Positions 1,653 through 63,991 of a DNA stretch of 64,000 nt are shown here, in pieces (position 1 is the stretch's first letter; each line of letters begins with the position of its first letter). The translations under genes and the position numbers were made by a program. The stretch is from Candidatus Melainabacteria bacterium (GTDB taxonomy: Bacteria; Cyanobacteriota; Vampirovibrionia; Gastranaerophilales; Gastranaerophilaceae): contig QHMG01000005.1 in NCBI GenBank assembly GCA_003258725.1, forward strand, positions 47,152 through 111,151, given 5' to 3'. Under the pieces are notes generated by a model. That model saw only the letters and a program-made list of their open reading frames with translations. It ran no database searches and had not been told where the DNA came from.

Positions 1653-2159
1653 ATGAGCGTAGATGGATTTTCAATGTCGAGTTTGGGACTACCCAAGGAT
1701 ATAACTTCAGCGCAAATGACAGCGAGTACTGAGCAGGCGGTTTTAAATGCTGGTGAAAAGGTTGTTGGCAAAATTGACAGAGCTTTAAATAAAAAGATTG
1801 ATAATAATACAGACGAAGAAAAAGAAAAAAATCAATTTTTTGAAGATGGTTTTCAAAAAGATGACGATGATGATAACGAAGATGAAAACCAAGAGGAAGA
1901 AGCAAAAGGTTTTTCAGTAAATCAAGATGAAATTTTCAATGATGGTATAGCTAGAAAAAAACGTTTTAAACGCTATAAAGCACCAGTAATAAAAGATCCT
2001 GAAAATATAACAATACGTATTAATAATAACTTGAATAATATTGAATTATATAATATAGTAACTAATAAGACTGTTGAGATTATTGATGCGGAAGATTTTG
2101 TTAACATGGTTAATAAGCTGGATTATAATTCTGGAATTTTAGTTAATAAAAATATTTAA
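1653..2159 (+). CDS. flaG: FlaG-like flagellar protein
   Basis: 168 aa, with an acidic low-complexity middle. The C-terminal block ELYNIVTNKTVEIIDAEDFVNMVNKLDYNSGILVNKNI matches the FlaG C-terminal pattern (EVIRQIPPEE..L.....G.lvD.k). Sits immediately upstream of fliS. Confidence 0.45.
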   Translation: MSVDGFSMSSLGLPKDITSAQMTASTEQAVLNAGEKVVGKIDRALNKKIDNNTDEEKEKNQFFEDGFQKDDDDDNEDENQEEEAKGFSVNQDEIFNDGIARKKRFKRYKAPVIKDPENITIRINNNLNNIELYNIVTNKTVEIIDAEDFVNMVNKLDYNSGILVNKNI

Positions 2160-2182
2160 AGAGGTACAATTTAGAGGTTTTT

Positions 2183-2599
2183 ATGAATCCATATTTAAAG
2201 ACATATCAAAAAAATGAAGTTGAGACAGCATCTCCAGAAAAAATTTTAATTTTGCTGTATGACGGAGCTATTCAGTTTTTAAATAAAGCAAAAATTGCGA
2301 TGAAGGACAATAATATTGCTGAGATTCACAATAACATAATGAGTTGTGAAGAAATTATTGAAGAATTCATCAATACAGTAGATGAAGAAAAGGGTGGGGA
2401 GTTTGCAGTAAGAATAAAGGCTTTATATCAATATTTTTATAATACTTTGGTTATGGCGAATATAAAAAAAGACGAGTCTAAAATTGATGAAGTATTGAGA
2501 CATCTAGTAGATTTGCGTGCAACTTGGAAGCAGGCAATTGCAATCGCAAATAGCCAACGTGCCCAATTAAGTTCAGGGGTTTCGGATTACGAAGGTTAA
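2183..2599 (+). CDS. fliS: Flagellar export chaperone FliS
   Basis: 138 aa. Carries the FliS family hallmarks Y....TASPEKLILLLYDGAI.FL..A and GGEFA..I..LY.Y. Confidence 0.85.
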   Translation: MNPYLKTYQKNEVETASPEKILILLYDGAIQFLNKAKIAMKDNNIAEIHNNIMSCEEIIEEFINTVDEEKGGEFAVRIKALYQYFYNTLVMANIKKDESKIDEVLRHLVDLRATWKQAIAIANSQRAQLSSGVSDYEG

Positions 2600-2601
2600 T
2601 T

Positions 2602-2973
2602 ATGACTAAGCAATTTGACCAATTAAAAATGTTATACAAACAGGTTTTAGCGACCTCTGTTGAAGTTAAAAAATTTATAGAAAAAGAAAATTACGACGAG
2701 GCTTTATCAAGAGAAACTCACAAAGCACAATTGATTAGCAAAATTAATATTGTCAAAAATTCTTTTGATTTAACAGATTTTGAGCAATCTACTTTGAGAA
2801 AAATTGTAGAGGATATTCAAAAACAAGAAATGGAAAATATTTCAACTGTAAAAGATTTAAAAGACGATACAGCTTTAAAACTAAAAGCATTAAAGGCAAA
2901 GTCAAAAATTACAAATAAATATTCTGGAGATACAGAACCACAGGAAGGTTCTATACTAGATTTTAATGAGTAA
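2602..2973 (+). CDS. FliT-like helical protein (putative flagellar chaperone)
   Basis: 123-aa all-helical protein directly after fliS, in the position FliT occupies in the flaG-fliD-fliS-fliT arrangement. No strong sequence motif. Confidence 0.3.
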   Translation: MTKQFDQLKMLYKQVLATSVEVKKFIEKENYDEALSRETHKAQLISKINIVKNSFDLTDFEQSTLRKIVEDIQKQEMENISTVKDLKDDTALKLKALKAKSKITNKYSGDTEPQEGSILDFNE

Positions 2974-3961: not shown

Positions 3962-4570
3962 ATGAAAATGTTTCAAAATAAAAAATCTGTTGCCTTCACA
4001 CTTGCTGAGATACTTATGGTAATGGGTATCATTGGCGTTGTTGCGGCGATTACAATTCCAAATTTAAACAAAAATATTGGTGATCAAGAAAGAGTTGCAA
4101 AAGTTCAAACAATGGTCGCTGATGTTGATCAAGCCTATAAAATCGCACTAAAAAAATATGATGATGAATGGACTACAAATTCTTATGGTCCACGAATTTT
4201 AGAGTTTATGCAAACTAAGCTAACTTGTACCACTGCTAATGCATCAAACTGTGCTCCACTTGGTTATAAACGACGAGGTTCTGGGGTTTCAACTGGAATT
4301 CCAAATCAAGGAGTTGCTGCAACATTTAATGATGGTTCAACAATCTTATTTGGTGGTAATATTGCATATATTGACATTGACGGTAAAGGTGGATATCAAA
4401 CTTTGGGAGTTGATGGCTTTTTAATAGGGTTTGGAGAAAGTGGACTTTTGATGAACGGCTCTGAAAATGATTCAAATGTAACCAATTACACTTCTTGGAT
4501 TGTAAAAAATGGAAATGCCGAATATTTACATTGCAATACGGTTAAGAATTCAAATATAACCTGCAAGTAA
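3962..4570 (+). CDS. Prepilin-type N-terminal cleavage/methylation domain protein (type IV pilin-like)
   Basis: Leader MKMFQNKKSVA followed by FTLAEILMVMGIIGVVAAITIPNL. Glu at +5. C-terminal Cys pairs. Ala rather than Gly at -1. Confidence 0.8.
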   Translation: MKMFQNKKSVAFTLAEILMVMGIIGVVAAITIPNLNKNIGDQERVAKVQTMVADVDQAYKIALKKYDDEWTTNSYGPRILEFMQTKLTCTTANASNCAPLGYKRRGSGVSTGIPNQGVAATFNDGSTILFGGNIAYIDIDGKGGYQTLGVDGFLIGFGESGLLMNGSENDSNVTNYTSWIVKNGNAEYLHCNTVKNSNITCK

Positions 4571-27968: not shown

Positions 27969-28586
27969 ATGAGTGATTTAAGTTTAAACCAAAAAGCAAA
28001 AATATTCTTCGATGGTGAAAATGGCATCGAAATGGAACTGGACTGTTATATCAATAATATTGAAGATGACAGATTGGGATTAGATTATCCGCAAGACGCT
28101 GAGACTTTGAAAAAGTACTTGGAAGAAGGTACTCCGATTGACGTAAAAATCTTTACTCCATCGGGTCTTATGGTCTTTGAATCTGTTGTTATCAATTCTC
28201 CAGATGAAGGTTTCGTTATTGAATATGTAGAAGACGCTGTTGTTATTCAACGTCGTGATTATTCTCGTTCACCGTTGAAAACTAAGTTAGAATTGAAACT
28301 AAGAACTGAAACTTTTGTTGCTAGTACAATTGATATTTCTGGTGGTGGTATAAAATTCTTCTCTAAAGAAGATTTGAACCCAGAAGAAGTCGTTACTGGT
28401 AAGTTATATCTTAAAAATTTCGATGTACCTGCCAGATTTGAAGCTGTTATCCTTGATAACCCTTCTCTTCAACCTGACGAATACACTCTTGCTTTCACAA
28501 ATATTGATGAAAAAGAAAGAGATAAAATTATCAAAACTTGCTTTGCTATTGATATGCAATCAAGACGCAATAGGAATGAAGAATAA
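27969..28586 (+). CDS. PilZ domain protein (YcgR-like N-domain plus PilZ), c-di-GMP receptor
   Basis: RRDYSRSP ... DISGGGIKF matches the PilZ RxxxR / DxSxxG motifs. Confidence 0.7.
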   Translation: MSDLSLNQKAKIFFDGENGIEMELDCYINNIEDDRLGLDYPQDAETLKKYLEEGTPIDVKIFTPSGLMVFESVVINSPDEGFVIEYVEDAVVIQRRDYSRSPLKTKLELKLRTETFVASTIDISGGGIKFFSKEDLNPEEVVTGKLYLKNFDVPARFEAVILDNPSLQPDEYTLAFTNIDEKERDKIIKTCFAIDMQSRRNRNEE

Positions 28587-52504: not shown

Positions 52505-52569
52505 CCCCAATTGGGGGATTTTTTACATGAAAAAGGCGGGATTGCAATTTGCAATCCCGCCTTTTTAAA
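52505..52569. terminator. Terminator pair downstream of family member A
   Basis: GGCGGGATTGCAA TTT GCAATCCCGCC with flanking A/T runs, plus CCCCAATTGGGGG followed by a T-run. Confidence 0.75.
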
Positions 52570-52582
52570 TTCTTTTCGTTTA

Positions 52583-53905
52583 CTAAGAACTGAATGTTTT
52601 GAAGGTTGCTTCGACGTTCTTTTGAATAACGCTCTTTACTGCCTCCATTTCTGTTGAAAGAGCTTTTTGTTCGGTATCAAGTTGCTTCAATCTCAATTCT
52701 AGGGTTCTGTCTTGAACTTGAATTTTTGATGTCTTAGCGTTGATATCTGCTAATTCTTTTTCATAAGCTAAAATATCATAATTATATTGATTCATTGCAT
52801 CATCGTAAGAAGCTGTGTCTGTTGTTTCTTCTGATTTAAGCGCAAAAGATTCACTTGAACTCATAAGTTTAATATTCTTATATCTGCCTGTGCCTGATTT
52901 GTCGTCAAGTCTTGCGTATTCTTGTCTTGTAATATCTTCTTTTTTATGTGTTGCGTAGTATTGATTTAAGTTCTTTTGGTAATCAATTGCTGAAGAAATT
53001 TGATATTTGTCATTTACAGGTGGTTGGTTTGCCAAACCACTTACAATACAATCATTCAATTCAGATTCTGTCGCATAGCAAGTTCTGCCATTCTTTTGAT
53101 ATACCCAAATTTCATTAGGGTTAACGCCTGCTAATTCAGGGAAGTCGTGAATGATTTGGTCATAATCTGCCTTTTGAACTGGGTCAGTCAAATCAAGTCT
53201 TTCAGCATCAGAGTTACCAAGTTTGTAGCTGTAATCCTTGTCTGATACACCATAAACAGGTAAGTCACCTTCTTTGGTTGCAGTTTTATCAATGTTTTCT
53301 AAGTCTTCTTTTTTTGCGTAAATAGCTGGATCTTTTGTCCCATCTGCTTTGTAGAAGTCTTTGATATCATCAATAGTAATCAAACCCTTGCTTTGTAATG
53401 CTTTTAAGTTATCCAAATCTTCTGCTGTACATTCTTTGAATTGTGCAGATGTACCAGCTTGGTCTGTTACGGTGTAAGATTTGTTTGTAGTGTCTTTTAC
53501 AACTTTAACGTTTTGTTCGATACCGTTGTTTGTGTTGTAATTTGTAACTTTTTGAACTTGAGGGTTAGTGTTCTTTTGTTGAATTGCTTTAAACACCTCT
53601 TGGTTGTAGTGGTAAGTTACTTGATAATTATATTTTTCACCTGTTTCAGGATCTGTATAATCAACGTTTTGGTAGCTGTCAATTTCATAGTCGTTAAACC
53701 CATCAGTGAAGGCATATTGTTGAGTTGTGTAATCTGTTGTTTTTGGAGCGGTAGGCACTTGAAGTGCTAACATTCTGTTCCATAGGTTTGCAGATTGGTT
53801 TGCAAGCGCTGTACGTGCTTGGTTAATTTGTTGACCTTCGTATTCAGTGTTTGTTTTTCTGGCAGTAAGACCTAAGTATCTTGCCTGTGAAGCAGCCATA
53901 CCCAT
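52583..53905 (-). CDS. Novel-family protein A (about 440 aa; conserved helical N- and C-termini, divergent core; no signal peptide)
   Basis: Paralog of 59577..60893. The shared start MGMAASQARYLGLTARKTN is preceded by GGAGA-N7. The track ORF extends 27 codons further upstream (to 53986), but the paralog and RBS support a start at 53905. Confidence 0.6.
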   Translation of the reverse strand: MGMAASQARYLGLTARKTNTEYEGQQINQARTALANQSANLWNRMLALQVPTAPKTTDYTTQQYAFTDGFNDYEIDSYQNVDYTDPETGEKYNYQVTYHYNQEVFKAIQQKNTNPQVQKVTNYNTNNGIEQNVKVVKDTTNKSYTVTDQAGTSAQFKECTAEDLDNLKALQSKGLITIDDIKDFYKADGTKDPAIYAKKEDLENIDKTATKEGDLPVYGVSDKDYSYKLGNSDAERLDLTDPVQKADYDQIIHDFPELAGVNPNEIWVYQKNGRTCYATESELNDCIVSGLANQPPVNDKYQISSAIDYQKNLNQYYATHKKEDITRQEYARLDDKSGTGRYKNIKLMSSSESFALKSEETTDTASYDDAMNQYNYDILAYEKELADINAKTSKIQVQDRTLELRLKQLDTEQKALSTEMEAVKSVIQKNVEATFKTFSS

Positions 53906-54059
53906 AAGCGTATCTCCTCTTCTGTGTCCATTTAATCTTATGTAAATGATTATAATAATATTTTTTCGAAAATCAACATTTTCCATGAAATATCAATTGT
54001 TTGGACTATAAAATTTTGCTCAAATCCTCTATTTAGACGTAAATAAGCTCTTTGAATTT

Positions 54060-54233
54060 TTATACATCTTCTGGAATAAAGATTACGCAGTCTTCCAATT
54101 GATTTCTAACCTCCTCGCTTGAACTTCTAATTTTCACGACTCGTTGGTACTCTCTTACAACGCTAATAACGTCGTCTGTCGACATTCTAATTAATCTTCT
54201 TTTACCAGCTTCGTTTTCAATAATTCTAGCCAT
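54060..54233 (-). CDS. Small conserved-looking protein (57 aa), not in the ORF track
   Basis: ATG at 54231-54233 is preceded by AAAAAGGAGAAAACGAC. Product MARIIENEAGKRRLIRMSTDDVISVVREYQRVVKIRSSSEEVRNQLEDCVIFIPEDV. Immediately upstream of family member A. Confidence 0.45.
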   Translation of the reverse strand: MARIIENEAGKRRLIRMSTDDVISVVREYQRVVKIRSSSEEVRNQLEDCVIFIPEDV

Positions 54234-54331
54234 GTCGTTTTCTCCTTTTTAACTTGTAAGTTATTTAACGACAAAAAACGGCTGAACTTTAGTAAATTCA
54301 ACCGTTTTGCTTATAAATTATTGTTCAAATT

Positions 54332-54670
54332 TTAATCATTTAATGAAACTGCAAGACCTTCCATAATATTGAAAAAATCTTCATTAGGAAGTGTTGACAT
54401 AGTTTTTAGTGCATATTTTAAATCGTCGTTTTTGTCATACCAACGACGTTCGTTTACGCTTTGTTGAAACAAGCCCATAACACGTTCTATACCGATGCTT
54501 AATTGCGGTTCTTCTTCCTCTTTATGTAAGTCTTTAATTTGTTTTACAATTTCAATTAAGTCGGCAGACAACCTTCTTTTTTGTTCAGTGTCAAGTTTTT
54601 GCAAAATTTCGAAAGCCTTTAAGGTTTCATTGTGTTCGTCGTACCATCTGCGTTTTAAGTTCATACACAC
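54332..54670 (-). CDS. Hypothetical protein with an internal RRWYD-helix duplication
   Basis: Two copies of (K/E)RRWYD(E/K).....LK.A...(L) spaced about 65 aa apart. 112 aa. Confidence 0.4.
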   Translation of the reverse strand: MCMNLKRRWYDEHNETLKAFEILQKLDTEQKRRLSADLIEIVKQIKDLHKEEEEPQLSIGIERVMGLFQQSVNERRWYDKNDDLKYALKTMSTLPNEDFFNIMEGLAVSLND

Positions 54671-54768
54671 ATTCCTTTTTCTAAAATAATAAACTTTTTT
54701 TTAAGAAAGGTCAACTATTTTTCAAGATGTAAAAAAAATGGTAAAATGTAAAAATAGGTTAGTTATAA

Positions 54769-56754
54769 ATGAAAAAAATAATATATTCTATATTCCTAAT
54801 ATTCCTATTTATAGGCTTTTTGAGTGCGCAATCGGTATTTGCGGACGATAAAATTACGTCTGTAAACTATGATATTTCTGCAAATATGTTATTTTTAACC
54901 TCTGGAAATTTCTCTAATACTGAGAAAAATCCAATAAAATTAGTTAAACTTTCTAACCCTAATAGAGTTTATTTTGATATAGAAAATTCTGTTTTAACTA
55001 CGGCAAAACAAGATTTTCAAGTTACATCTGGCGGAGTTTTGAGGCAAGTTGTCGTTTCTCAAAATAGTACAAATCCAAATGTTGTAAGGGTTGTAATGTA
55101 TTTTGCAGAGGCTTACAATACGTCTAATTTAAAAATAATGCGTTTGAATGGTAACATTATCGTACAAATTAACAACGACGTTTGTGCTCTTGCAAATTAT
55201 ATGCACGAAATTTATAGAGATACAAAATATGATTCAAACGACTATTACTCCTTTGTTTCAATGACCTCTCAACAAGTTAGTGCGAATGATTTACCTCTAA
55301 CCGCAACAGCAAGCAATGCTCCGGAAAAAGTTTTAAATCAAATACAACAAGCCTTTGAAAATTCGACTGTGCCTGTAAGTGTTAAAAGTTCTTATCAAAA
55401 CGCAAATGTTTCTGTTATAAAAAAGAATTTTAAACTTAAATCAAAATATTACTTAACGGGTGTTCAAGCTCGACAAAATGGCATTTTAATTAGTGGTTAC
55501 GGTACATTTACAATTGAAAAACCTATGGTGTTGCCAAATCCAAATAGATTGGTACTAGATTTTGCAAATACTGTTTCAAGTCCCGCAGTCCGTTCAAAAA
55601 CTTTTAAATATGGTGAAGATACAATTCGTGTAGGTCAATTTGAAGCAAACAGAGCAAGAATAGTTATTACAACTCCAAATGCGGATAGATATATTCCTGT
55701 TTATTCAGCTGATGGGCAGTCTGTTTTAATCGCTGATAAAGAAAACTTAAGTCACGATAAATTATCAAATATAACAACTAACCTAGTAAGTACACGAGTT
55801 ACAAAGACAAATGAACAAAATTATGGATTAAATTTATATTTTAGTAAACCTGTTGTTTATTCAGTAAAACGTGATGCAAACAATTTAACTTTATATATGT
55901 TTAATGCTCTTCAATATAACGACCAAGATTTTCGCTCTGTAATTAAAGGAACATCAGTTGAAAATTCAAAAATTTACCTTATGCCAAGAGTTGGTTTGAG
56001 ATATTCGATTCCACTTGACTCACGAGATACTGTTAAAGTTTATACGGGAACAGATGCAAGAACTATTAAAATAGCGTTTAAATCTCCAAGCAAAGCGATA
56101 AAACGACAACCTACGATTGCTGATACGCCAACAACCTTGCCAACAAAGGTTAAAAACGTGGACAAAAATAACGATAAGGTTGAAATGCCAAAGATTACAC
56201 CAAGAAAAAATGGTGAAAGAGTTGTCGTAATAGATCCTGGACATGGCGGAAAAGATTATGGTGCAATTCGTGCAGGCATTAATGAAAAAGACATTACACT
56301 TGATGTTTCAAAACTTGTAGCCGCAATGTTGCGTGCTAAGGGTTACAAGGTGTATATGAGCCATGATACAGATAAATTTGTTCCATTGCAAGGAATTGTA
56401 GATATTGCCGAAGAAGTTAAACCGGATCTTTTTGTAAGTATTCACGTAAATTCCAGCAACGGAACAGAAGCGACAGGTATTGAAACGCACTATTACCACG
56501 AATACAGTATTGGTTTAGCTAAATCAGTACACAATGCTTTAATGGCACAAGTTACAACAACCAAAGACAGAGGTTTGTTTAAATCTAGATTTTATGTTAT
56601 AAATCATACTACAATGCCTGCAATTTTGGTTGAAATTGGATTTATTTCAAACGATAATGAAAGGGCAGAATTAGTTTCTGAAAAACGTAAGCAGGCGACT
56701 GCAAGAGGCATAACAAATGGTATCATCAACTACTACAAGCAACAACAAAAATAA
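54769..56754 (+). CDS. N-acetylmuramoyl-L-alanine amidase with N-terminal AMIN domains (AmiC-like)
   Basis: Signal peptide. Two AMIN-like repeats (NRVYFDIENSV; NRLVLDFANTV). C-terminal Amidase_3 (VVIDPGHGGKD). Confidence 0.8.
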   Translation: MKKIIYSIFLIFLFIGFLSAQSVFADDKITSVNYDISANMLFLTSGNFSNTEKNPIKLVKLSNPNRVYFDIENSVLTTAKQDFQVTSGGVLRQVVVSQNSTNPNVVRVVMYFAEAYNTSNLKIMRLNGNIIVQINNDVCALANYMHEIYRDTKYDSNDYYSFVSMTSQQVSANDLPLTATASNAPEKVLNQIQQAFENSTVPVSVKSSYQNANVSVIKKNFKLKSKYYLTGVQARQNGILISGYGTFTIEKPMVLPNPNRLVLDFANTVSSPAVRSKTFKYGEDTIRVGQFEANRARIVITTPNADRYIPVYSADGQSVLIADKENLSHDKLSNITTNLVSTRVTKTNEQNYGLNLYFSKPVVYSVKRDANNLTLYMFNALQYNDQDFRSVIKGTSVENSKIYLMPRVGLRYSIPLDSRDTVKVYTGTDARTIKIAFKSPSKAIKRQPTIADTPTTLPTKVKNVDKNNDKVEMPKITPRKNGERVVVIDPGHGGKDYGAIRAGINEKDITLDVSKLVAAMLRAKGYKVYMSHDTDKFVPLQGIVDIAEEVKPDLFVSIHVNSSNGTEATGIETHYYHEYSIGLAKSVHNALMAQVTTTKDRGLFKSRFYVINHTTMPAILVEIGFISNDNERAELVSEKRKQATARGITNGIINYYKQQQK

Positions 56755-57535
56755 ACCTATTGCTGTTTTTGATTCGGGCGTAGGCGGATTAACAGTATAT
56801 AAAAAATTAAAAGAACTTTTGCCAAACGAAGATTATATTTATTTTGGCGATTTAAAAAATTGTCCTTACGGTCAAAAATCAAAACAGCAATTAATTGATT
56901 TAACAGCAGATATCTTCAATTATTTTAAATACGAAGATGTTAAGGCGGTTGTTATGGCTTGTAACACAACCTCTGCAAATGTTTACGATGAATACAACAA
57001 TAAATTTGATTATACACTTTATCCTATAATTCAATCTTGTGCAAAAATTATTTCACAATTACCAATTGAACGATTAGGAGTGTTTGCAACCTCTGCAACA
57101 ATTTCATCTGGGGCTTACAAAAGAGAAATTAACAAGTACAACTCAAATGTCAAAGTGTTTGAAATGTCTTGTCCAGGCTGGGTTCAAATTGTAGAAGGTA
57201 ACAAGCAAAATGATGAATTGAGTATTGAGTTAATTAAAGAAAATATGGATAAAATGCTTGAAAACAATCCTGACAAAATTCTTTTAGGTTGTACTCACTA
57301 TCCATTTTTGTTAGATGTTTTATCAACATTTGCGCCTCGTGATATGTTTATTGACCCAGCAGAATATTTTGCAAATTACATAAAAGAAGATTTACAAAGT
57401 CGTGATTTACTCAATGAAAATGGCGGGCATGAAAGATTTTATGTAAGCGCTAATCCAAATGAATTTAAAGTTGCTGCAAGAATGTTCTATGATTTGCACG
57501 AAGAACCTCAATTGATGAATTTTGCAAGAGCATAA
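56717..57535 (+). CDS. murI: Glutamate racemase
   Basis: IAVFDSGVGGLTV and GCTHYP motifs. The 5' end overlaps the amidase gene. Confidence 0.85.
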   Translation: MVSSTTTSNNKNKPIAVFDSGVGGLTVYKKLKELLPNEDYIYFGDLKNCPYGQKSKQQLIDLTADIFNYFKYEDVKAVVMACNTTSANVYDEYNNKFDYTLYPIIQSCAKIISQLPIERLGVFATSATISSGAYKREINKYNSNVKVFEMSCPGWVQIVEGNKQNDELSIELIKENMDKMLENNPDKILLGCTHYPFLLDVLSTFAPRDMFIDPAEYFANYIKEDLQSRDLLNENGGHERFYVSANPNEFKVAARMFYDLHEEPQLMNFARA

Positions 57536-57542
57536 TTACTAA

Positions 57543-57571
57543 AGAGCTTAGCATTTTTAATGCTAAGCTCT
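57543..57571. terminator. Stem-loop between murI and the convergent fadD-like gene
   Basis: AGAGCTTAGCAT TTTTA ATGCTAAGCTCT 12-bp stem. The T-run is weak. Confidence 0.5.
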
Positions 57572-57592
57572 ACATTTTTCTATAAATTCTTT

Positions 57593-59275
57593 CTATAAAT
57601 TCAATAACTGTTTAACTTCTCTACGTTTAACTTTTCTTGTTGTTGTTTTTGGAAGTTCTTTCTTGTAAACGATGATGTTAATTGGTCGTTTATAAGGTGC
57701 TAAATGCGCAGACAAGTGTTTAACTTCTTCTCTTACAATTTTGTTTAATTCTTCATCTGATTTGTCAGCCATATAGCTTTCTTTTGGAACAATTACAGCT
57801 ACGATTTCTTCTGTACCGTCTTTTGTACCACCAGAACGAGATGAACCCATTACACAAACTTCTGCAAAGTTGTTGCTAGATTCAAGAACAGCTTCAACTT
57901 CTTCCGGAAATACTTTTTTACCACCAGAAAGTACAATCATGTTCTTAATTCTGCCTGTAATGTGAATGTGTCCGTCTTTATCTAAATGACCGATATCTCC
58001 TGTATGCAACCAGCCATCTTCGTCAATAGTTTCAGCTGTAAGCTCTGGTTGATTATGATATCCCTTCATTACTGAAGGACCTTTTAATTGAATTTCGCCT
58101 GTTTCTTTGTCAATTCTACATTCAAAACCTGGAAGTGGTTTACCAACTGAAGTATAGTCTTTACGTTTATCGTAGTTTACTGATACAACAGGGCTAGTTT
58201 CTGATAAGCCATAACCTGCATAAACTTTGATACCAATTGTTTCAAAGAAGTTTGCAACATTTTTGTCAATTGGTGCGCCACCAGAAATGCAACCTCTGAA
58301 TTGACCGCCAAAGTTATCATGGATTTTCTTGAAAATCATCTTCTTAATTCTGAATGAAGGAATGAATTTTGCTATATTAAACATGATAGGGAAAACTTTT
58401 TTAGCAATAGGGTTATTGTGAATTTCGTTTTCAATACCAGCTTTCAATAATTTTAAGAAGGCTGGAACAACTACCATGAATTGAACTTGTTTTTCTCTCA
58501 TAATCATCAAAATGTCTTTTGGTTTTAATGATTGAGTGTAATAAACTGATGTTCCTAACAACAAGAAGGTTGAGAAACCAACGGTTAATTCAAACAAGTG
58601 ATTCATAGGTAAGATTGATAAAATTTTTGTATTTTCACCTGCAGGAATAAATTCTGGAACAACTGTGCTAAGAGCGTTTAGTTGTGCAAGCATGTTTCTA
58701 AATGAAATTTCAACGCCTTTAGGATTACCTGTTGTGCCTGAAGTGTAGATGATGAAAGCTGTTGATTTTGAGCTTCTGTGTCTCCATTTGCAGTGAGGTG
58801 TTGAATTTATTGTGTATAAACTTGGAAGTGTCATGTTGTAGCTTGGTTCGTCCATAACGATAATGTGTTTGATTGACGGAACTTCCTTTTGTATTTCTAA
58901 TGCTTTTTCAATGTAAGTTTGTGAAACTAATAAAACTTTTGGCTGGCAATCTGTAAGGATTGAAACAAGTTCAAACTTTGTCAATTTTATATCAAGTGGA
59001 ACTGTTGTTGCGCCTGAAAGAATTGATGCAAAAACGCAAGCGCCGTATTCTGGCTTTGATTCAGATAGAATAGCAACTCTATCATTTTTTTGAACTTCTA
59101 ATTCGTTGATAAGGTAGCTGCCTAATTTTCTTGATAAAAGCCCTAAACCTTTGTATGTAAATTCTTTCCAACCTAAAGCTGTTCTAATACCTAATGCAAC
59201 TCTATCTCCGTATACATCAGTTTTTTCTTCTAACAAAAGAAGAACATTGTTTTTTCTGTATTTCATCTTCCTCAC
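57593..59275 (-). CDS. Long-chain-fatty-acid--CoA ligase (AMP-dependent synthetase family)
   Basis: YTSGTTGNPKGV AMP-binding motif. 560 aa. Confidence 0.8.
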   Translation of the reverse strand: MRKMKYRKNNVLLLLEEKTDVYGDRVALGIRTALGWKEFTYKGLGLLSRKLGSYLINELEVQKNDRVAILSESKPEYGACVFASILSGATTVPLDIKLTKFELVSILTDCQPKVLLVSQTYIEKALEIQKEVPSIKHIIVMDEPSYNMTLPSLYTINSTPHCKWRHRSSKSTAFIIYTSGTTGNPKGVEISFRNMLAQLNALSTVVPEFIPAGENTKILSILPMNHLFELTVGFSTFLLLGTSVYYTQSLKPKDILMIMREKQVQFMVVVPAFLKLLKAGIENEIHNNPIAKKVFPIMFNIAKFIPSFRIKKMIFKKIHDNFGGQFRGCISGGAPIDKNVANFFETIGIKVYAGYGLSETSPVVSVNYDKRKDYTSVGKPLPGFECRIDKETGEIQLKGPSVMKGYHNQPELTAETIDEDGWLHTGDIGHLDKDGHIHITGRIKNMIVLSGGKKVFPEEVEAVLESSNNFAEVCVMGSSRSGGTKDGTEEIVAVIVPKESYMADKSDEELNKIVREEVKHLSAHLAPYKRPINIIVYKKELPKTTTRKVKRREVKQLLNL

Positions 59276-59576
59276 CTATTTATAAGTATTCTTCCATTAA
59301 GAATGTCCTAGTATTATAAACTAAATGAAGTAGCAATGTCAATTTTACTATACATGTAATAATAATATACATGTATGAAATTTTAATATTTGTATACATT
59401 ATAAGGGGGATTTTTGTCATTATTTAATGTAAAAAAATGTAAACATACCGTATAATAACCATGATTATAGTTGACTTTTAGCCAACAGTCATTAAAGACA
59501 AAAAGAAAGTATAAATAGTCGAAATACGAGAGAAAAAGAAGAAAGTAGTTATACAAAAAGATAGGAGAAACCGCTT

Positions 59577-60893
59577 ATGGGTATGGCAGCATCACAGGCA
59601 AGATACTTAGGTCTTACCGCAAGAAAAACAAACGTTGAATATGAAGGTCAACAAATTAACCAAGCTCGTACTGCATTAGGTAACCAATCAGCTACTTTGT
59701 GGAATCAAATGTTAAGTTTGTCAATTCCGACATGTCCTAACACTACTGATTACACAACTGTACAATACTCATTCAGTGATGGTTACAACAAGTACACAAT
59801 TTCTAACGTTCAGTCAGTTGAAAAAGAAATTGACGGCGTTAAGTACAACAAACAAATTACTTATTACTACAATCAAGACACATTCAAGGGTATTCAATCT
59901 AAGAACACTAACCCTCAAGCTCAAAAAATTGATGATTGGTCTGCAACAGTTAATACAGACAATATTGAAGTTATTGATGACGGTGCTGGCGGAGTTAAAT
60001 ACGCTTTGGCAGGTGACAATACAATTGAAGTAACAAGAAATACTGTTGATACAAAATCAGCAGAGTACACAGCTTATTTGAAGGCTAACAAGCTAGATAA
60101 ATTAGATGATGGCGAAGAATTGTATTCATTCAAATATACTGACGCTGACGGCAAAGAACAAACAGTTTACCAACGTGGTAACGATATTGTTAACTTAGAT
60201 GCCGGAAATGTTGGTAAAAAAATGAGTTCAGCAACATTGGCTAACAATCCGTCTTACATGGTTGGTAATTCAAAAGCAACATTATATGATCCAAACGATA
60301 AAGAACAATTAGCAGCTTATGAACAATTAAAACAAGACTTCCCAGAACAAGATTTTGATGCGGATCAAGTTTATGTTTATAAGAAAACAGGCAACCAAAT
60401 GTTCTTTGCTAAGAAATCGGACTTAGATGCTTGTATTGCAAGTGGTCAAGTTGATGTAAAAGATGACAGATTCCAAATTTCATCTCAAATTGATTACCAA
60501 GCTCCATTGAATCAATACTATGCAACAACAATTTCTCAAAAAGTTGAAAACACAGATTACGCAATTATGGACGATTTCTCTGGCTCTGGTCGTTTTTCAA
60601 ATGTAAAATTAAGCACAATGAGTGATACATTTGAAGTTCAATCAGAAGAAATTACTGATGAAAAAGCTTATAATGATGCGATGAATCAATACAACTATGA
60701 TGTTACAAAATACGAAAAATCAATGGCTGATATCAACGCAAAAACATCTGTAATTCAAGAACAAGATAGACAACTTGAATTGAGATTGAAACAGTTAGAA
60801 ACAGAACAAAAAGCGCTTTCAACTGAAATGGACGCTGTTAAAGGTATTATTTCTAAGAATGTTGAATCAACATTCAAAACATTCTCATCATAG
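59577..60893 (+). CDS. Novel-family protein B (438 aa), paralog of 52583..53905
   Basis: Collinear with A. The N-terminal 50 aa and C-terminal about 70 aa are near-identical and the core is divergent. RBS GGAGA-N7-ATG. A roughly 300-bp AT-rich leader lies upstream. Confidence 0.6.
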   Translation: MGMAASQARYLGLTARKTNVEYEGQQINQARTALGNQSATLWNQMLSLSIPTCPNTTDYTTVQYSFSDGYNKYTISNVQSVEKEIDGVKYNKQITYYYNQDTFKGIQSKNTNPQAQKIDDWSATVNTDNIEVIDDGAGGVKYALAGDNTIEVTRNTVDTKSAEYTAYLKANKLDKLDDGEELYSFKYTDADGKEQTVYQRGNDIVNLDAGNVGKKMSSATLANNPSYMVGNSKATLYDPNDKEQLAAYEQLKQDFPEQDFDADQVYVYKKTGNQMFFAKKSDLDACIASGQVDVKDDRFQISSQIDYQAPLNQYYATTISQKVENTDYAIMDDFSGSGRFSNVKLSTMSDTFEVQSEEITDEKAYNDAMNQYNYDVTKYEKSMADINAKTSVIQEQDRQLELRLKQLETEQKALSTEMDAVKGIISKNVESTFKTFSS

Positions 60894-60916
60894 TAAACGA
60901 CTTAATAAGCTTAGAA

Positions 60917-60976
60917 GTGCGTTGCGTTACATATATAAACGCACTTCTAGAGCGGATAGTAGTAACTTATGTAACG
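60917..60976 (+). promoter_or_regulatory. Stem-loop / alternative-pairing element between family B and the downstream Gly-rich gene (putative attenuator)
   Basis: TAGAAGTGCGTT-loop-AACGCACTTCTA 12-bp stem with no T-run. TGCGTTACAT / ATGTAACGCA offers alternative pairing. Confidence 0.4.
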
Positions 60977-61005
60977 CACAACCCCTTAAAACGAGGTAAA
61001 CAATT

Positions 61006-61854
61006 ATGTCATATAAAAATGATAGTTTATTAGTTATAGCAAACAAATTCGGTGCAGCATCAGGCGATGCAAAAGTTCAGTTATACGAAACTTATGACCG
61101 ATTAAGAGACTTGACAGTATCAGGCTCAGCAAGTTCTGGTACAGGTTTTGAGTTGGCTGGTGGTGCGTTGTATAAAGTTGCAAGTTTGTTTGCACCATCG
61201 TCATTTATGACAACATTGGGAGGTACACAATCCTTTAATATCCCTGGTACATCATACTGGTCACCGATTACAGGTTCAACTGCACAAGTTAATGGTACAA
61301 CATCTGCCTTCGGTATTGGTAATTTGGGGAGTTATTCAGGATTCCCAAATGGTGCAGCAGGATTATCCCTAAGTGGATTTGCAACAGGTGGCGCATCATC
61401 AATTACGGATACTTTAAGCGGTTTCGGTACATCAAGTGGTGTTGTAACAGGTGGTGCGTCATCAATTGGTGCAATTGCCGATGTTGCAAGTGCAACAGCT
61501 TACGGTGTTGGTACTGCAAATGGTTACGGTATTGGTCTGCAAAACGTAGTAATGCCTGTAGCTGGTATTTTATCAGGTTGGGGCGGTATCATGACTGCTG
61601 CTGCTCCTTACTTGGGTGAATATGGTTTGCCTGCAATCGTTATGGGTAACTTGATGCAAGGTACTTCATCAGCTGCCTTATCAGCTTATCAAAGTGTATC
61701 TTCAAACATTTTGGCTAATGCTGATACAATCCTTTCTAACAAGGTTAGAAATATTGAAACTGTATGTAAAATGCTTGATACACAAGGTGAAATTGTTAGA
61801 AAAATGTTAAAAGAAGGTATGGATTCTGACTCAAAGGCAATCCAAAACTTATAG
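61006..61854 (+). CDS. Gly/Ser/Thr-rich protein without signal peptide
   Basis: 282 aa. G/S/T/A-rich low-complexity core with a helical C-terminus. Follows family B. Confidence 0.45.
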   Translation: MSYKNDSLLVIANKFGAASGDAKVQLYETYDRLRDLTVSGSASSGTGFELAGGALYKVASLFAPSSFMTTLGGTQSFNIPGTSYWSPITGSTAQVNGTTSAFGIGNLGSYSGFPNGAAGLSLSGFATGGASSITDTLSGFGTSSGVVTGGASSIGAIADVASATAYGVGTANGYGIGLQNVVMPVAGILSGWGGIMTAAAPYLGEYGLPAIVMGNLMQGTSSAALSAYQSVSSNILANADTILSNKVRNIETVCKMLDTQGEIVRKMLKEGMDSDSKAIQNL

Positions 61855-62193
61855 TTGAAGAAATTCGGTAATGGAAACACGTACATATTTAAGAGTAATA
61901 ATTTACAAACTATTTGTAAATAACGTATTTATAAAGATTTTGACCTCTATTGTAAATTTTTATTACAATTTGTGGAGTTTTTTGCCTGCAAAGCTAAAGT
62001 TTAAGAAATCTATGCCGATAACATATTCGGATATGAAGAGAAACATCGTTTTCTTGAGTATCACGGGTGATAAGATAGACTGTACATGATTAAGACATGT
62101 TACAAACTTTTCAAATCATGCTAAAACATAGGCAATTATTGGAAAGAACATGTTTTTAAATATGTGAAGGTCAATCTATAAAGTTAAAAAGGA

Positions 62194-62478
62194 GTGAACG
62201 ATATGTTCCAATCAGAAACTTTACAGACTAACTTCAAAAGACTTATGAACTTCTTTGCTTATACAAGGAACTATTTCGCAAGAAATAATCCTATAAAGGC
62301 AATGACAGACGATATAGTTAATGCGTTAAAAGAGGCTTTAACAGTACGTAAAAAGTTAAAAATGGCGCAATACAGACTAAATTATCATAAGTATCAATTC
62401 AACCGTATGGAAGCCTTGATTGCAGAAAACAATCAACACAACTTCTTGAAAGGCAAGAACTTAAACGAAACCAGATAA
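62194..62478 (+). CDS. Small helical hypothetical protein
   Basis: 94 aa. AGGAG RBS. Confidence 0.35.
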   Translation: MNDMFQSETLQTNFKRLMNFFAYTRNYFARNNPIKAMTDDIVNALKEALTVRKKLKMAQYRLNYHKYQFNRMEALIAENNQHNFLKGKNLNETR

Positions 62479-62490
62479 AGGGATAAAACA

Positions 62491-62817
62491 ATGGGTTTAC
62501 TTACAGCTTCAATGAGAATGTTCACTTTGAACTCACAAAGATTGGATTTGGAATACAAAATTCAACTTGTTTCTCAAGCTAAAGCGGATTTGACAGTGCA
62601 AGATGCACAATTGATTAACGCAGGTACAGACTTGAGTGCTGATAGTCCTGTTCTTAAGCAATTAGAGGCAAGAAAAGAAAGATTACATTTGTTGGAAAAG
62701 AAATTAGATCAGCAAATGATGCAATATCAATCTCAGTTGAAAATGGTTGAAACCGAATTGAAATCTTGTCAGAACCAATTTGATAAGAATGTTGCAACCT
62801 CTTGCGGTTACCAATAG
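62491..62817 (+). CDS. Short member (108 aa) of the novel family: N-terminal motif plus coiled coil only
   Basis: MGLLTASMRMFTLNSQRLDLEYKIQLVSQAK aligns with MGMAASQARYLGLTARKTNVEYEGQQINQAR of A and B. The rest is a predicted coiled coil. Confidence 0.45.
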   Translation: MGLLTASMRMFTLNSQRLDLEYKIQLVSQAKADLTVQDAQLINAGTDLSADSPVLKQLEARKERLHLLEKKLDQQMMQYQSQLKMVETELKSCQNQFDKNVATSCGYQ

Positions 62818-63202: not shown

Positions 63203-63991
63203 ATGATTAGAAAATTAAAACAAATTTTTAATATACAAAACGAATGTCGTTCTGAACTTGTGGCAGAAACGCATAAAAGATACCGCAACATATTGCAAGC
63301 CTTCACTCTTGCTGAAGTACTAGTTGTAATCGGTATTATTGGTGTTGTATCAGCGCTAACTATTCCAAATTTGCAACAAGGTACAAATTCAAAAGAAGTA
63401 ATTACAAAGGTAACAAAAGCAAAAGCAACAATTGACGAGGCTTATGGTCGTGCTATTGCGACTTATGGTGATCCTTGCCTTTGGACAAAAGGTCAAACAA
63501 CGGCAGCTGCTCAAGCTGCGGTTTGGTATAACCGTATATTTGAAAATTTAAAAGTGGATAAAGATTGTGGACTTGTGGATAATACTAATAGGACTTGTTG
63601 GGATTCAACTTCAAATTTTGGCAATACTTACTATAAAGTTAAATTAGCTGATGGAACATCAATGGCAATGAGTGCAAATACAGGTGTTATTGCATTGGGA
63701 TATAACTGTGGAAGTTATGGCGTTGCATATAGTTTTTCTATTGATATTGATGGACCAAACAAAGGTTCTGGAAATGATTGTGATGATATATACACATTAA
63801 GTTATAATGTAACATCTTTTCTTGGTGATTATTCTGGAAATCTTAAAAAGAACTCAGCCGATTGTGCTGCTTGGGTATTGGATAAAGGCAATGCTGATTT
63901 CTTAAAGGCAACTGCAACTGGTGCAAATACTAGCTTCCAATGTCCAAATGGTAAATACTTAAATTGGTCTAACAACACAACTTGTAACTAA
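63203..63991 (+). CDS. Prepilin-type N-terminal cleavage/methylation domain protein (type IV pilin-like), second copy
   Basis: FTLAEVLVVIGIIGVVSALTIPNL. The track ORF N-terminus (63203-63292) encodes MIRKLKQIFNIQNECRSELVAETHKR and contains a palindromic-element copy at 63244-63270. The likely true start is TTG at 63293 (MQA|FTLAE). Confidence 0.7.
   Translation: MIRKLKQIFNIQNECRSELVAETHKRYRNILQAFTLAEVLVVIGIIGVVSALTIPNLQQGTNSKEVITKVTKAKATIDEAYGRAIATYGDPCLWTKGQTTAAAQAAVWYNRIFENLKVDKDCGLVDNTNRTCWDSTSNFGNTYYKVKLADGTSMAMSANTGVIALGYNCGSYGVAYSFSIDIDGPNKGSGNDCDDIYTLSYNVTSFLGDYSGNLKKNSADCAAWVLDKGNADFLKATATGANTSFQCPNGKYLNWSNNTTCN

Follow-up and report, generated by a model that had tools for sequence, protein, structure and literature searches.

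What might the Gastranaerophilales, a widespread gut lineage, export through the partial flagellar gene set that they retain, a set whose purpose has been unexplained since 2013-14 (Soo 2014; 2026 preprint)? According to Di Rienzi 2013, some gut Melainabacteria have flagellar genes and canonical flagellins. Most Gastranaerophilales carry only a subset of flagellar genes (Soo 2014), and a complete set is estimated to occur in only ~25% of genomes, with the suggestion that what the others retain may serve secretion (bioRxiv 10.64898/2026.04.24.720558). The table of Soo 2014 gives FlgB/C/F/G, FlhA/B, and FliE/I/J/P/R as present and does not list FlgD/E/H/I/K/L, FliC, FliD, FliK, FliM/N, MotA/B, or FliS/T. 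In the published tables, Gastranaerophilales genomes have the genes for the rod and the export gate but lack those for the hook, junction, filament, and cap, and what remains is an export machine without a known distal substrate. Here, we analyzed a 64,000-nucleotide (nt) stretch of DNA (the window) from Candidatus Melainabacteria bacterium (Gastranaerophilaceae; GCA_003258725.1, contig QHMG01000005.1, positions 47,152 to 111,151 of the forward strand). Three of its open reading frames (ORFs), two long ones (A and B) and one of 108 amino acids (C108), belong to a superfamily that falls outside every known family and that is organized and regulated in a similar way to the flagellar axial proteins. 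Its sigma-28 promoters and adjoining export genes make this superfamily a concrete candidate for the exported cargo of the remnant. An earlier reading made from the DNA letters (the sequence-only reading) had pointed to these ORFs, and their positions hold as follows (loci of relatives are given below as L001, etc.).

52583..53905, minus strand: A, long member, 440 amino acids, monocistronic paralog (BLASTP identity to B, 51% end to end, E 5e-139)
59577..60893, plus strand: B, long member, 438 amino acids, first gene of a conserved four-gene cluster
62491..62817, plus strand: C108, minimal member, with an N-helix, a loop G-x-D-L-x-x-D-S-P, and a C-helix ending in KN(I/V)xxSFxY

The ORF of A is extendable to 53986, and its conserved MGMAAS start with a ribosome-binding site lies at 53905. 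Alignment of the C108 family with the A/B family pairs residues 1-45 with residues 1-45 (hhalign, E 7.5e-6). The C108 profile found 525 matches at E ≤1e-3 among 1.84 billion cluster representatives; most are 105-115 amino acids long, and some proteins of 165-300 amino acids match via one stretch at each end. These mid-size proteins have the N-terminal motif MGLASSQARLLLLTARKSDLEY and the C-terminal motif LDLELQQIETQHKAIETEYDSVKKVIEKNIxxTFKIFS, with a shorter insert between the two. An independent profile built only from mid-size and small members (Z set to 1e6) matched A (E 9e-26) and B (E 3e-24) at both termini and C108 (E 4e-14) over its full length, and A, B, and C108 therefore constitute one superfamily. 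Its N-helix motif is MG[ML]xxSQxRxxxLxxR[KQ]xx[LV]E, its C-helix motif is ...LELxLxQL(D/E)TEQxAL...VKxVIxKN(I/V)ExTFKTF, and the insert between the terminal helices ranges from 0 to >400 residues, giving three size classes (mini, mid-size, and long) that all have both termini. The sequence-only reading had taken C108 for a terminus-only member sharing the N-terminal motif; it keeps both the N- and the C-terminus.

The superfamily is large. Searching a 5.8-billion-protein collection with B returned more than 4,691 relatives without any Pfam domain, and those with a name are each a “hypothetical protein” of Candidatus Gastranaerophilaceae or Gastranaerophilales metagenome-assembled genomes (MAGs). 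The mid-size class has more than 1,177 members, of which the named ones are from Gastranaerophilales or Cyanobacteriota. When a single genome of each GTDB species was scanned, at least 514 loci were found, in Gastranaerophilales/Melainabacteria or in bins with other labels, which we take to be mislabels. Several family-bearing contigs (L006, L009, L018, L045, L046, L056, L062, L076, and L078) are filed under Anaerovoracaceae, Alistipes, Muribaculaceae, Heliobacteriaceae, Brachyspira, or Gammaproteobacteria, probably through bin contamination or mislabelling. Among members carrying a name, the superfamily is confined to Melainabacteria. With homologs well beyond the source genome, the proteins are not the lineage-specific ORFans that had been considered as a deflating outcome. 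No published description of the protein family was found in the literature, and the family was indeed not annotated before: A, B, and C108 had no match at E up to 1 in Pfam and NCBIfam, all flagellar families included, and nothing significant was found for these three proteins or their cluster partners N282 and N94 in scans of PHROGs, Pfam, and NCBIfam. A phage origin was also considered and was rejected, as IMG/VR holds no relatives of the family.

The long members show an unusual conservation pattern. In a 30-sequence alignment of proteins of 411 to 706 amino acids, mean pairwise identity is 89% in the N-helix (residues 1-47) and 76% in the C-helix (residues 362-438), falls to 45-47% in the flanking beta segments, and reaches 30% in a variable core of 147 to 299 residues. 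There is essentially no variation in residues 1-36 and almost none in the last ~75, and the middle has large indels. When 51 distinct DNA sequences were compared over the first 36 codons, as many as five synonymous codons occurred at a position with the amino acids unchanged. As these residues are fixed while synonymous sites vary freely, the constraint acts on the protein rather than on the DNA and is not explained by gene conversion; the terminal helices are under extreme protein-level constraint. The core of the long members is rich in S/T/N/D/Y, and tandem paralogs occur (neighbouring pairs at L035, L040, L046, L075, L076, and L082). None of A, B, and C108 has a hydrophobic segment (maximum Kyte-Doolittle value over 19 residues, ≤0.41). 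The conserved helical termini, divergent core, and several paralogs described by the sequence-only reading are thus borne out by alignment and BLASTP, as is, by Kyte-Doolittle analysis, the lack of a signal peptide or transmembrane segment.

The AlphaFold2 model of B (predicted local distance difference test score, 82) begins with a helix (residues 2-47) and ends with another (362-437); between them lies a beta-rich core (48-361) whose tip is hypervariable, and very long strands and a small alpha/beta region make up the core. In a Foldseek comparison with the PDB, Geovibrio flagellin and Salmonella and Campylobacter junction and cap-filament complexes ranked first, with weak matches (E 4e-3 or worse, template modelling score <0.2), and the central domain had no PDB neighbour. 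With one N-helix and one C-helix of 46 and 76 amino acids, too short for D0 plus D1, the model lacks the helical core of ~250 residues of a flagellin, and the D0/D1-like bundle that had been envisaged is not there. Sequence comparisons agree. With hhalign and a panel of 14 E. coli proteins (FlgB/C/E/F/G/K/L/M and FliA/C/D/E/S/T), all probabilities for the A/B family were ≤1.5%. Flagellin_N/C (PF00669 and PF00700) went unmatched in both Pfam and NCBIfam at E up to 1, and the hhalign probability against FliC was 0.3%; phmmer searches with Hag and FliC found nothing in the window or in the 82 loci of relatives. No Pfam match was obtained for Flg_bb_rod/Flg_bbr_C (PF00460 and PF06429; FlgB,C,E,F,G,K), with hhalign probabilities of ≤0.6%, or, in A, B, and C108, for FliD_N/FliD_C (PF02465 and PF07195), with probabilities of ≤1.5%. 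C108 had no match to T3SS_needle_F (PF09392) at E up to 1 and none to PDB sequences, and PDB sequence-profile searches returned nothing for any of the four cluster proteins. The sequence-only reading was right that a flagellin, FlgK/L, or FliD signature is lacking, and the homology to flagellin that it entertained is unsupported.

The cluster that B opens continues with two further conserved genes and ends with C108.

61006..61854, plus strand: N282, 282 amino acids, Gly/Ser-rich, with helical ends and a borderline hydrophobic stretch at ~181-199 (Kyte-Doolittle 1.53)
62203..62478, plus strand: N94, ~91 amino acids, basic (isoelectric point 10), from the called ATG start; the mechanical ORF runs from a GTG at 62194

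N282 is present in 54 of the 82 loci (mean column identity, 81%), N94 in 51 (80%), and C108 in 50, and only 12 nt separate the end of N94 from the start of C108. Neither N282 nor N94 has a known relative or a match in Pfam or the PDB; the C-terminal helix of N282 matches the family profile marginally (E 0.031). N282 and N94, at ~80% mean column identity, are far better conserved than the long member, and N282, N94, and C108 are kept as neighbours even where the long member is only 31% identical to B.

Flagellar export genes lie close to this cluster. Of the 28 loci whose downstream flank extends for at least 8 kb, 19 have fliE, fliF, a diverged fliG-like gene, and fliH 2.3-5.4 kb downstream of the mini member, and a separately fetched locus (L085) has flhA as well. 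The gene between fliF and fliH encodes ~340 amino acids and is presumably fliG (L002:20343-21407, L027:18744-19757, and L085:17960-18970); it escapes the Pfam FliG models and has only a weak MgtE_N match. Since FliF and FliH give clear Pfam matches, though Soo 2014 lists FliF, FliG, and FliH as absent, the “partial flagellum” is partly an annotation gap, and for the FliG-like protein sequence divergence is also behind the reported absence. Around the mid-size and mini members of L083, L086, L088, L095, and L096, nothing informative was found.

Regulation provides a second tie to the flagellum, through two upstream elements in the window.

61995..62021, plus strand: sigma-28 (FliA)-type promoter TAAAGTTT-AAGAAATCTAT-GCCGATAA, perfect consensus with an N11 spacer, read directly, ~180 nt upstream of the N94-C108 pair
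59448..59499, plus strand: upstream element of B-type genes, CCGTATAAT, then TTGACTTT, ~10 nt, then TCATTAAAG (41 upstream regions)

The site upstream of N94-C108 has the TAAA-N15/16-GCCGATAA form that marks the sigma-28 regulon. When both strands of all loci (2.9 Mb) were searched for the strict motif TAAA-N15/16-[GAT]CCGA[TC]A[TAC], 38 matches were found, 20 of them before cluster genes (15 before N94 homologs and 5 directly before long members). In a test of enrichment, 250 nt upstream of each ORF were searched for a looser motif ([GAT][CT]CGA[TC]A[TAC]), with other ORFs of at least 150 amino acids as controls. The motif occurred upstream of N94 in 13/49 cases and upstream of long members (A/B) in 6/93, versus 2/845 controls (Fisher p 7e-16 and 2e-5, respectively). 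Canonical sigma-28 motifs lie 31-73 nt upstream of the divergent long members of L049, L075, L076, L077, and L082 and of the mid-size member of L086. Two mid-size members have such sites, one in the form TAAAG-N15-GCCGTATA, a -10 variant at the correct spacing. In some tandem pairs, a canonical sigma-28 promoter precedes each copy. The lineage encodes FliA: although none was seen inside the window, a related Melainabacteria MAG has a FliA homolog (L011:14015-14836, plus strand; E 5e-47 versus E. coli FliA) 2.7 kb from an A-type gene. We infer the use of these promoters from sequence alone.

The fuller form of the element before B-type genes, across 41 loci, is (T/G)(A/C)CCGTATAAT, 10-13 nt, TGTTGACTTT, ~9 nt, TCATTATAA; in the window, the CCGTATAAT box lies at 59448-59456 and is followed by a sigma-70-like TTGACTTT-N-TATAA. 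Given the occurrence of GCCGTATA at the right spacing in the mid-size member, the CCGTATAAT box may likewise be a variant of the sigma-28 -10 box, and the whole element could be a tandem of sigma-28-variant and sigma-70 promoters, or an operator. A-type genes carry only the second half, TGTTGAT(A/T)TT...TCATTATAAT, a sigma-70-like promoter (window 53976-53949). The N94 leader of ~180 nt (62022-62202, plus strand) contains blocks conserved across distant genomes (ATTAAGACATGTTA, GCAAT, ATGTTTTTA-TATA, and GAAGGTC...TAAAGTG). RNAalifold gave no consensus RNA structure for this leader or for the B-type upstream element, and for this reason we discounted what had looked like an inverted repeat in the promoter spacer. 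Rfam has no match in the whole window.

Two other features of the window, which otherwise contains housekeeping genes, are of flagellar type.

1653..2973, plus strand: module of FlaG-like (168 amino acids), FliS (138 amino acids, 2183-2599), and FliT-like (123 amino acids) genes; Pfam FliS E 6e-38, FliT E 3e-3
27969..28586, plus strand: YcgR-like protein of the flagellar brake type with PilZNR and PilZ domains, whose Pfam scores (24.9 and 58.9 bits, respectively) exceed the cut-offs

The first of these had been described as an orphan module with no filament gene beside it, and so it is: no fliC or fliD lies within 10 kb, no sigma-28 motif is found upstream, and four independent contigs (L089-L092) show it isolated between housekeeping genes. 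Public assemblies contain this FliS sequence, without any change, in 1,086 indexed blocks, which makes the species very common. The YcgR-like protein, a brake of the type that responds to cyclic di-GMP, suggests a rotating motor in the source organism.

How are these observations best explained? We favour, tentatively and at a little under an even chance, the reading that the flagellar type III export system has the family members as its substrates and that these polymerize through their terminal hairpin. Having no Sec signal, they would be passed out of the cell by this apparatus and would assemble outside via the near-invariant hairpin, as axial or needle subunits do, so that the hypervariable beta/alpha domain would be exposed to the gut. 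The mini member, in effect a copy of the hairpin, may serve as adaptor, cap, or base subunit, and N282 and N94 may be accessory or regulatory factors. Counted for this reading are the invariant termini, indel-rich core, and three size classes, as in the rod/hook/junction family; the sigma-28 promoters, the FliA gene near an A-type gene, and the synteny with fliE-fliF-fliG-like-fliH(-flhA); and the lack of a signal peptide or transmembrane segment, the weak flagellar ranking in Foldseek, and the FliS, FliT-like, FlaG-like, and YcgR-like proteins in the window. The link of the family to the flagellar regulon is supported by the promoters, the synteny, and the FliA gene, and in this respect the flagellar interpretation of the sequence-only reading stands; its other part, homology to flagellin, finds no support.

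Several observations weigh against export and assembly of this kind. The proteins show no homology to axial proteins in sequence (the E. coli panel) or in fold (the central domain of B). The main-group A and B genes, those of the window included, have only the variant sigma-28-like box and a sigma-70-like promoter. The synteny with fliE and fliF could be the inherited gene order of related genomes, and some members (L083, L095, and L096) lie in non-flagellar neighbourhoods. FliS is never found within 10 kb of a family gene in the 82 loci, so that the proposed link between FliS and the family is still a guess. Finally, canonical flagellins are reported in some gut Melainabacteria, and the family is therefore not simply “the” flagellin; close to family genes, no canonical flagellin was found.

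In a more far-reaching reading, the superfamily, together with N282 and N94, would form a new extracellular appendage that is built on the reduced export apparatus and rod of gut Gastranaerophilales and substitutes for the hook, junction, filament, and cap that they lack. We see this as possible but lean clearly against it; were it true, it would explain why a “partial flagellum” is retained in most genomes and would add a hypervariable surface facing the host.

An intracellular role within the sigma-28 regulon is unlikely but deserves consideration. Here, the proteins would be coiled-coil scaffold or regulatory proteins, associated with the motor or the pole or acting as partners of the export gate, and the hairpin would mediate hetero-oligomers of mini, mid-size, and long members. 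This would accommodate the promoters, but a core of 0 to >400 residues with ~30% identity, rich in S/T/N/D/Y and encoded by tandem genes, is typical of surface-exposed proteins under diversifying selection and difficult to reconcile with a scaffold in the cytoplasm.

Export without polymerization, in which the proteins would be variable adhesins, effectors, or decoy antigens sent out via the flagellar type III secretion system (T3SS) and the termini would be an export or chaperone-binding signal, draws on the same regulon and synteny evidence as polymerizing export. An N-terminus shared across cargo sizes fits a common export signal, and a variable core fits interaction with host or phage. T3SS signals, however, are not normally invariant over 36 residues or paired with a conserved 75-residue C-helix, and a mini member without cargo better suits a structural subunit than an effector. 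We regard this explanation as quite unlikely.

It is improbable that the proteins are extremely diverged true homologs of FliC, FlgK, FlgL, or FliD that make up the filament, junction, or cap in an otherwise ordinary flagellum. In favour of such homology, Foldseek puts flagellin, junction, and cap chains first, hhalign gives weak alignments at the equivalent termini of FlgE, FlgK, and FliD, a long gene followed by a gene of ~280 amino acids loosely recalls the order flgK-flgL, and FliS and the FliT-like and FlaG-like proteins have no nearby client. Nevertheless, none of the flagellar models in Pfam gives a match at E up to 1, hhalign probabilities do not exceed 1.5%, there is no helical region of D1 length, the central domain has no PDB neighbour, and canonical flagellins are already reported in the lineage. 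A phage or mobile-element, S-layer, or other surface protein unrelated to flagella, with coincidental sigma-28-like motifs, is very improbable. A weak PHROG tape-measure match on the C-helix (E 3e-3) and nearby prepilin-like genes speak for it; the lack of IMG/VR relatives, stable chromosomal positions among housekeeping genes, motif enrichment far beyond chance, and the lack of a signal peptide for Sec-dependent S-layer export speak against it. The S-layer suggestion of the sequence-only reading is without support.

Some further genes accompany the family. Two small ORFs lie upstream of A, in an arrangement that is the same in L005 and L011.

54060..54233, minus strand: 57-amino-acid ORF directly upstream of A, at the same position in relatives; a called gene in L001 and L005, without a Pfam match
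54332..54670, minus strand: ORF of 110-112 amino acids upstream of A-type paralogs, found in 9 loci, without a Pfam match

The latter is followed by its own terminator (54308-54275), and A has a hairpin terminator at 52530-52566. Proteins with a prepilin-type N-methylation motif are encoded in the window at 63203-63991 (plus strand), adjoining the cluster, and at 3962-4570 (plus strand). Prepilin-like genes are present in 30 of the 82 loci (e.g., L002:17049-18032), and in L002-L004 a prepilin-type protein with DUF6613 lies directly upstream of fliE. Outside the window, a conserved coiled-coil protein of ~205-213 amino acids is encoded convergently to the mini member in 31 loci (L002:13281-13895, minus strand); it has only a weak FliD_C-like Pfam match (E 0.03).

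The potential significance of the superfamily depends on which steps hold. If its members assemble, they would be axial-type filament subunits with a new beta fold and without detectable homology to flagellin or needle proteins. Should they reach the host, a human-associated bacterium would have in them a major variable surface antigen, one that would probably escape flagellin-based (TLR5) expectations. Apart from the superfamily, some of the “missing” flagellar genes of the lineage (FliF, FliG, and FliH) are present but unannotated, the FliG-like protein being beyond the Pfam FliG model.

Among known systems, EnvC, PcsB, RipC, and CT398/HP0958 match the generic hairpin only; the family lacks their LytM, CHAP, or zinc-ribbon domains, is not similar to these proteins in sequence, and has no signal peptide. 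Needle and filament subunits of T3SSs (PrgI/MxiH/YscF and EspA) offer a parallel as far as the amino acids can be read: C108 would be a comparable helix-loop-helix with a proline turn (D-P-x-S-P) and an aromatic C-tail (SF.Y or TFKTF), and larger family members appear to add domains on the same hairpin. Unlike those subunits, the family does not match T3SS_needle_F in Pfam at E up to 1, and injectisome genes were not encountered. Non-filament substrates of the flagellar T3SS (Campylobacter FlaC, FspA, and Cia) share with our proposal the idea of a flagellar export apparatus, possibly a reduced one, that secretes something besides the motility filament, and non-flagellated Lysobacter have a reduced flagellar T3SS (PMC7688988); FlaC, FspA, and Cia, however, are flagellin homologs or unrelated effectors without the terminal module or the three size classes of the family. 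A further comparison is that with the flagellar axial proteins (FliC; FlgK/FlgL; FliD; FlgB/C/F/G/E). The family differs from them in having a helical part of 46 plus 76 residues without a D1 bundle, a core unrelated to D2/D3 or to any PDB entry, termini far more invariant than those of flagellins, and no match to Flagellin_N/C, Flg_bb_rod, Flg_bbr_C, or FliD. It resembles them in its conserved N- and C-helices predicted to pair as a hairpin, in the inserted domain that is variable in size and would be exposed, in small, medium, and large members that share their termini, in its several paralogs, and in its sigma-28 promoters, its location near export genes, and its lack of a Sec signal.

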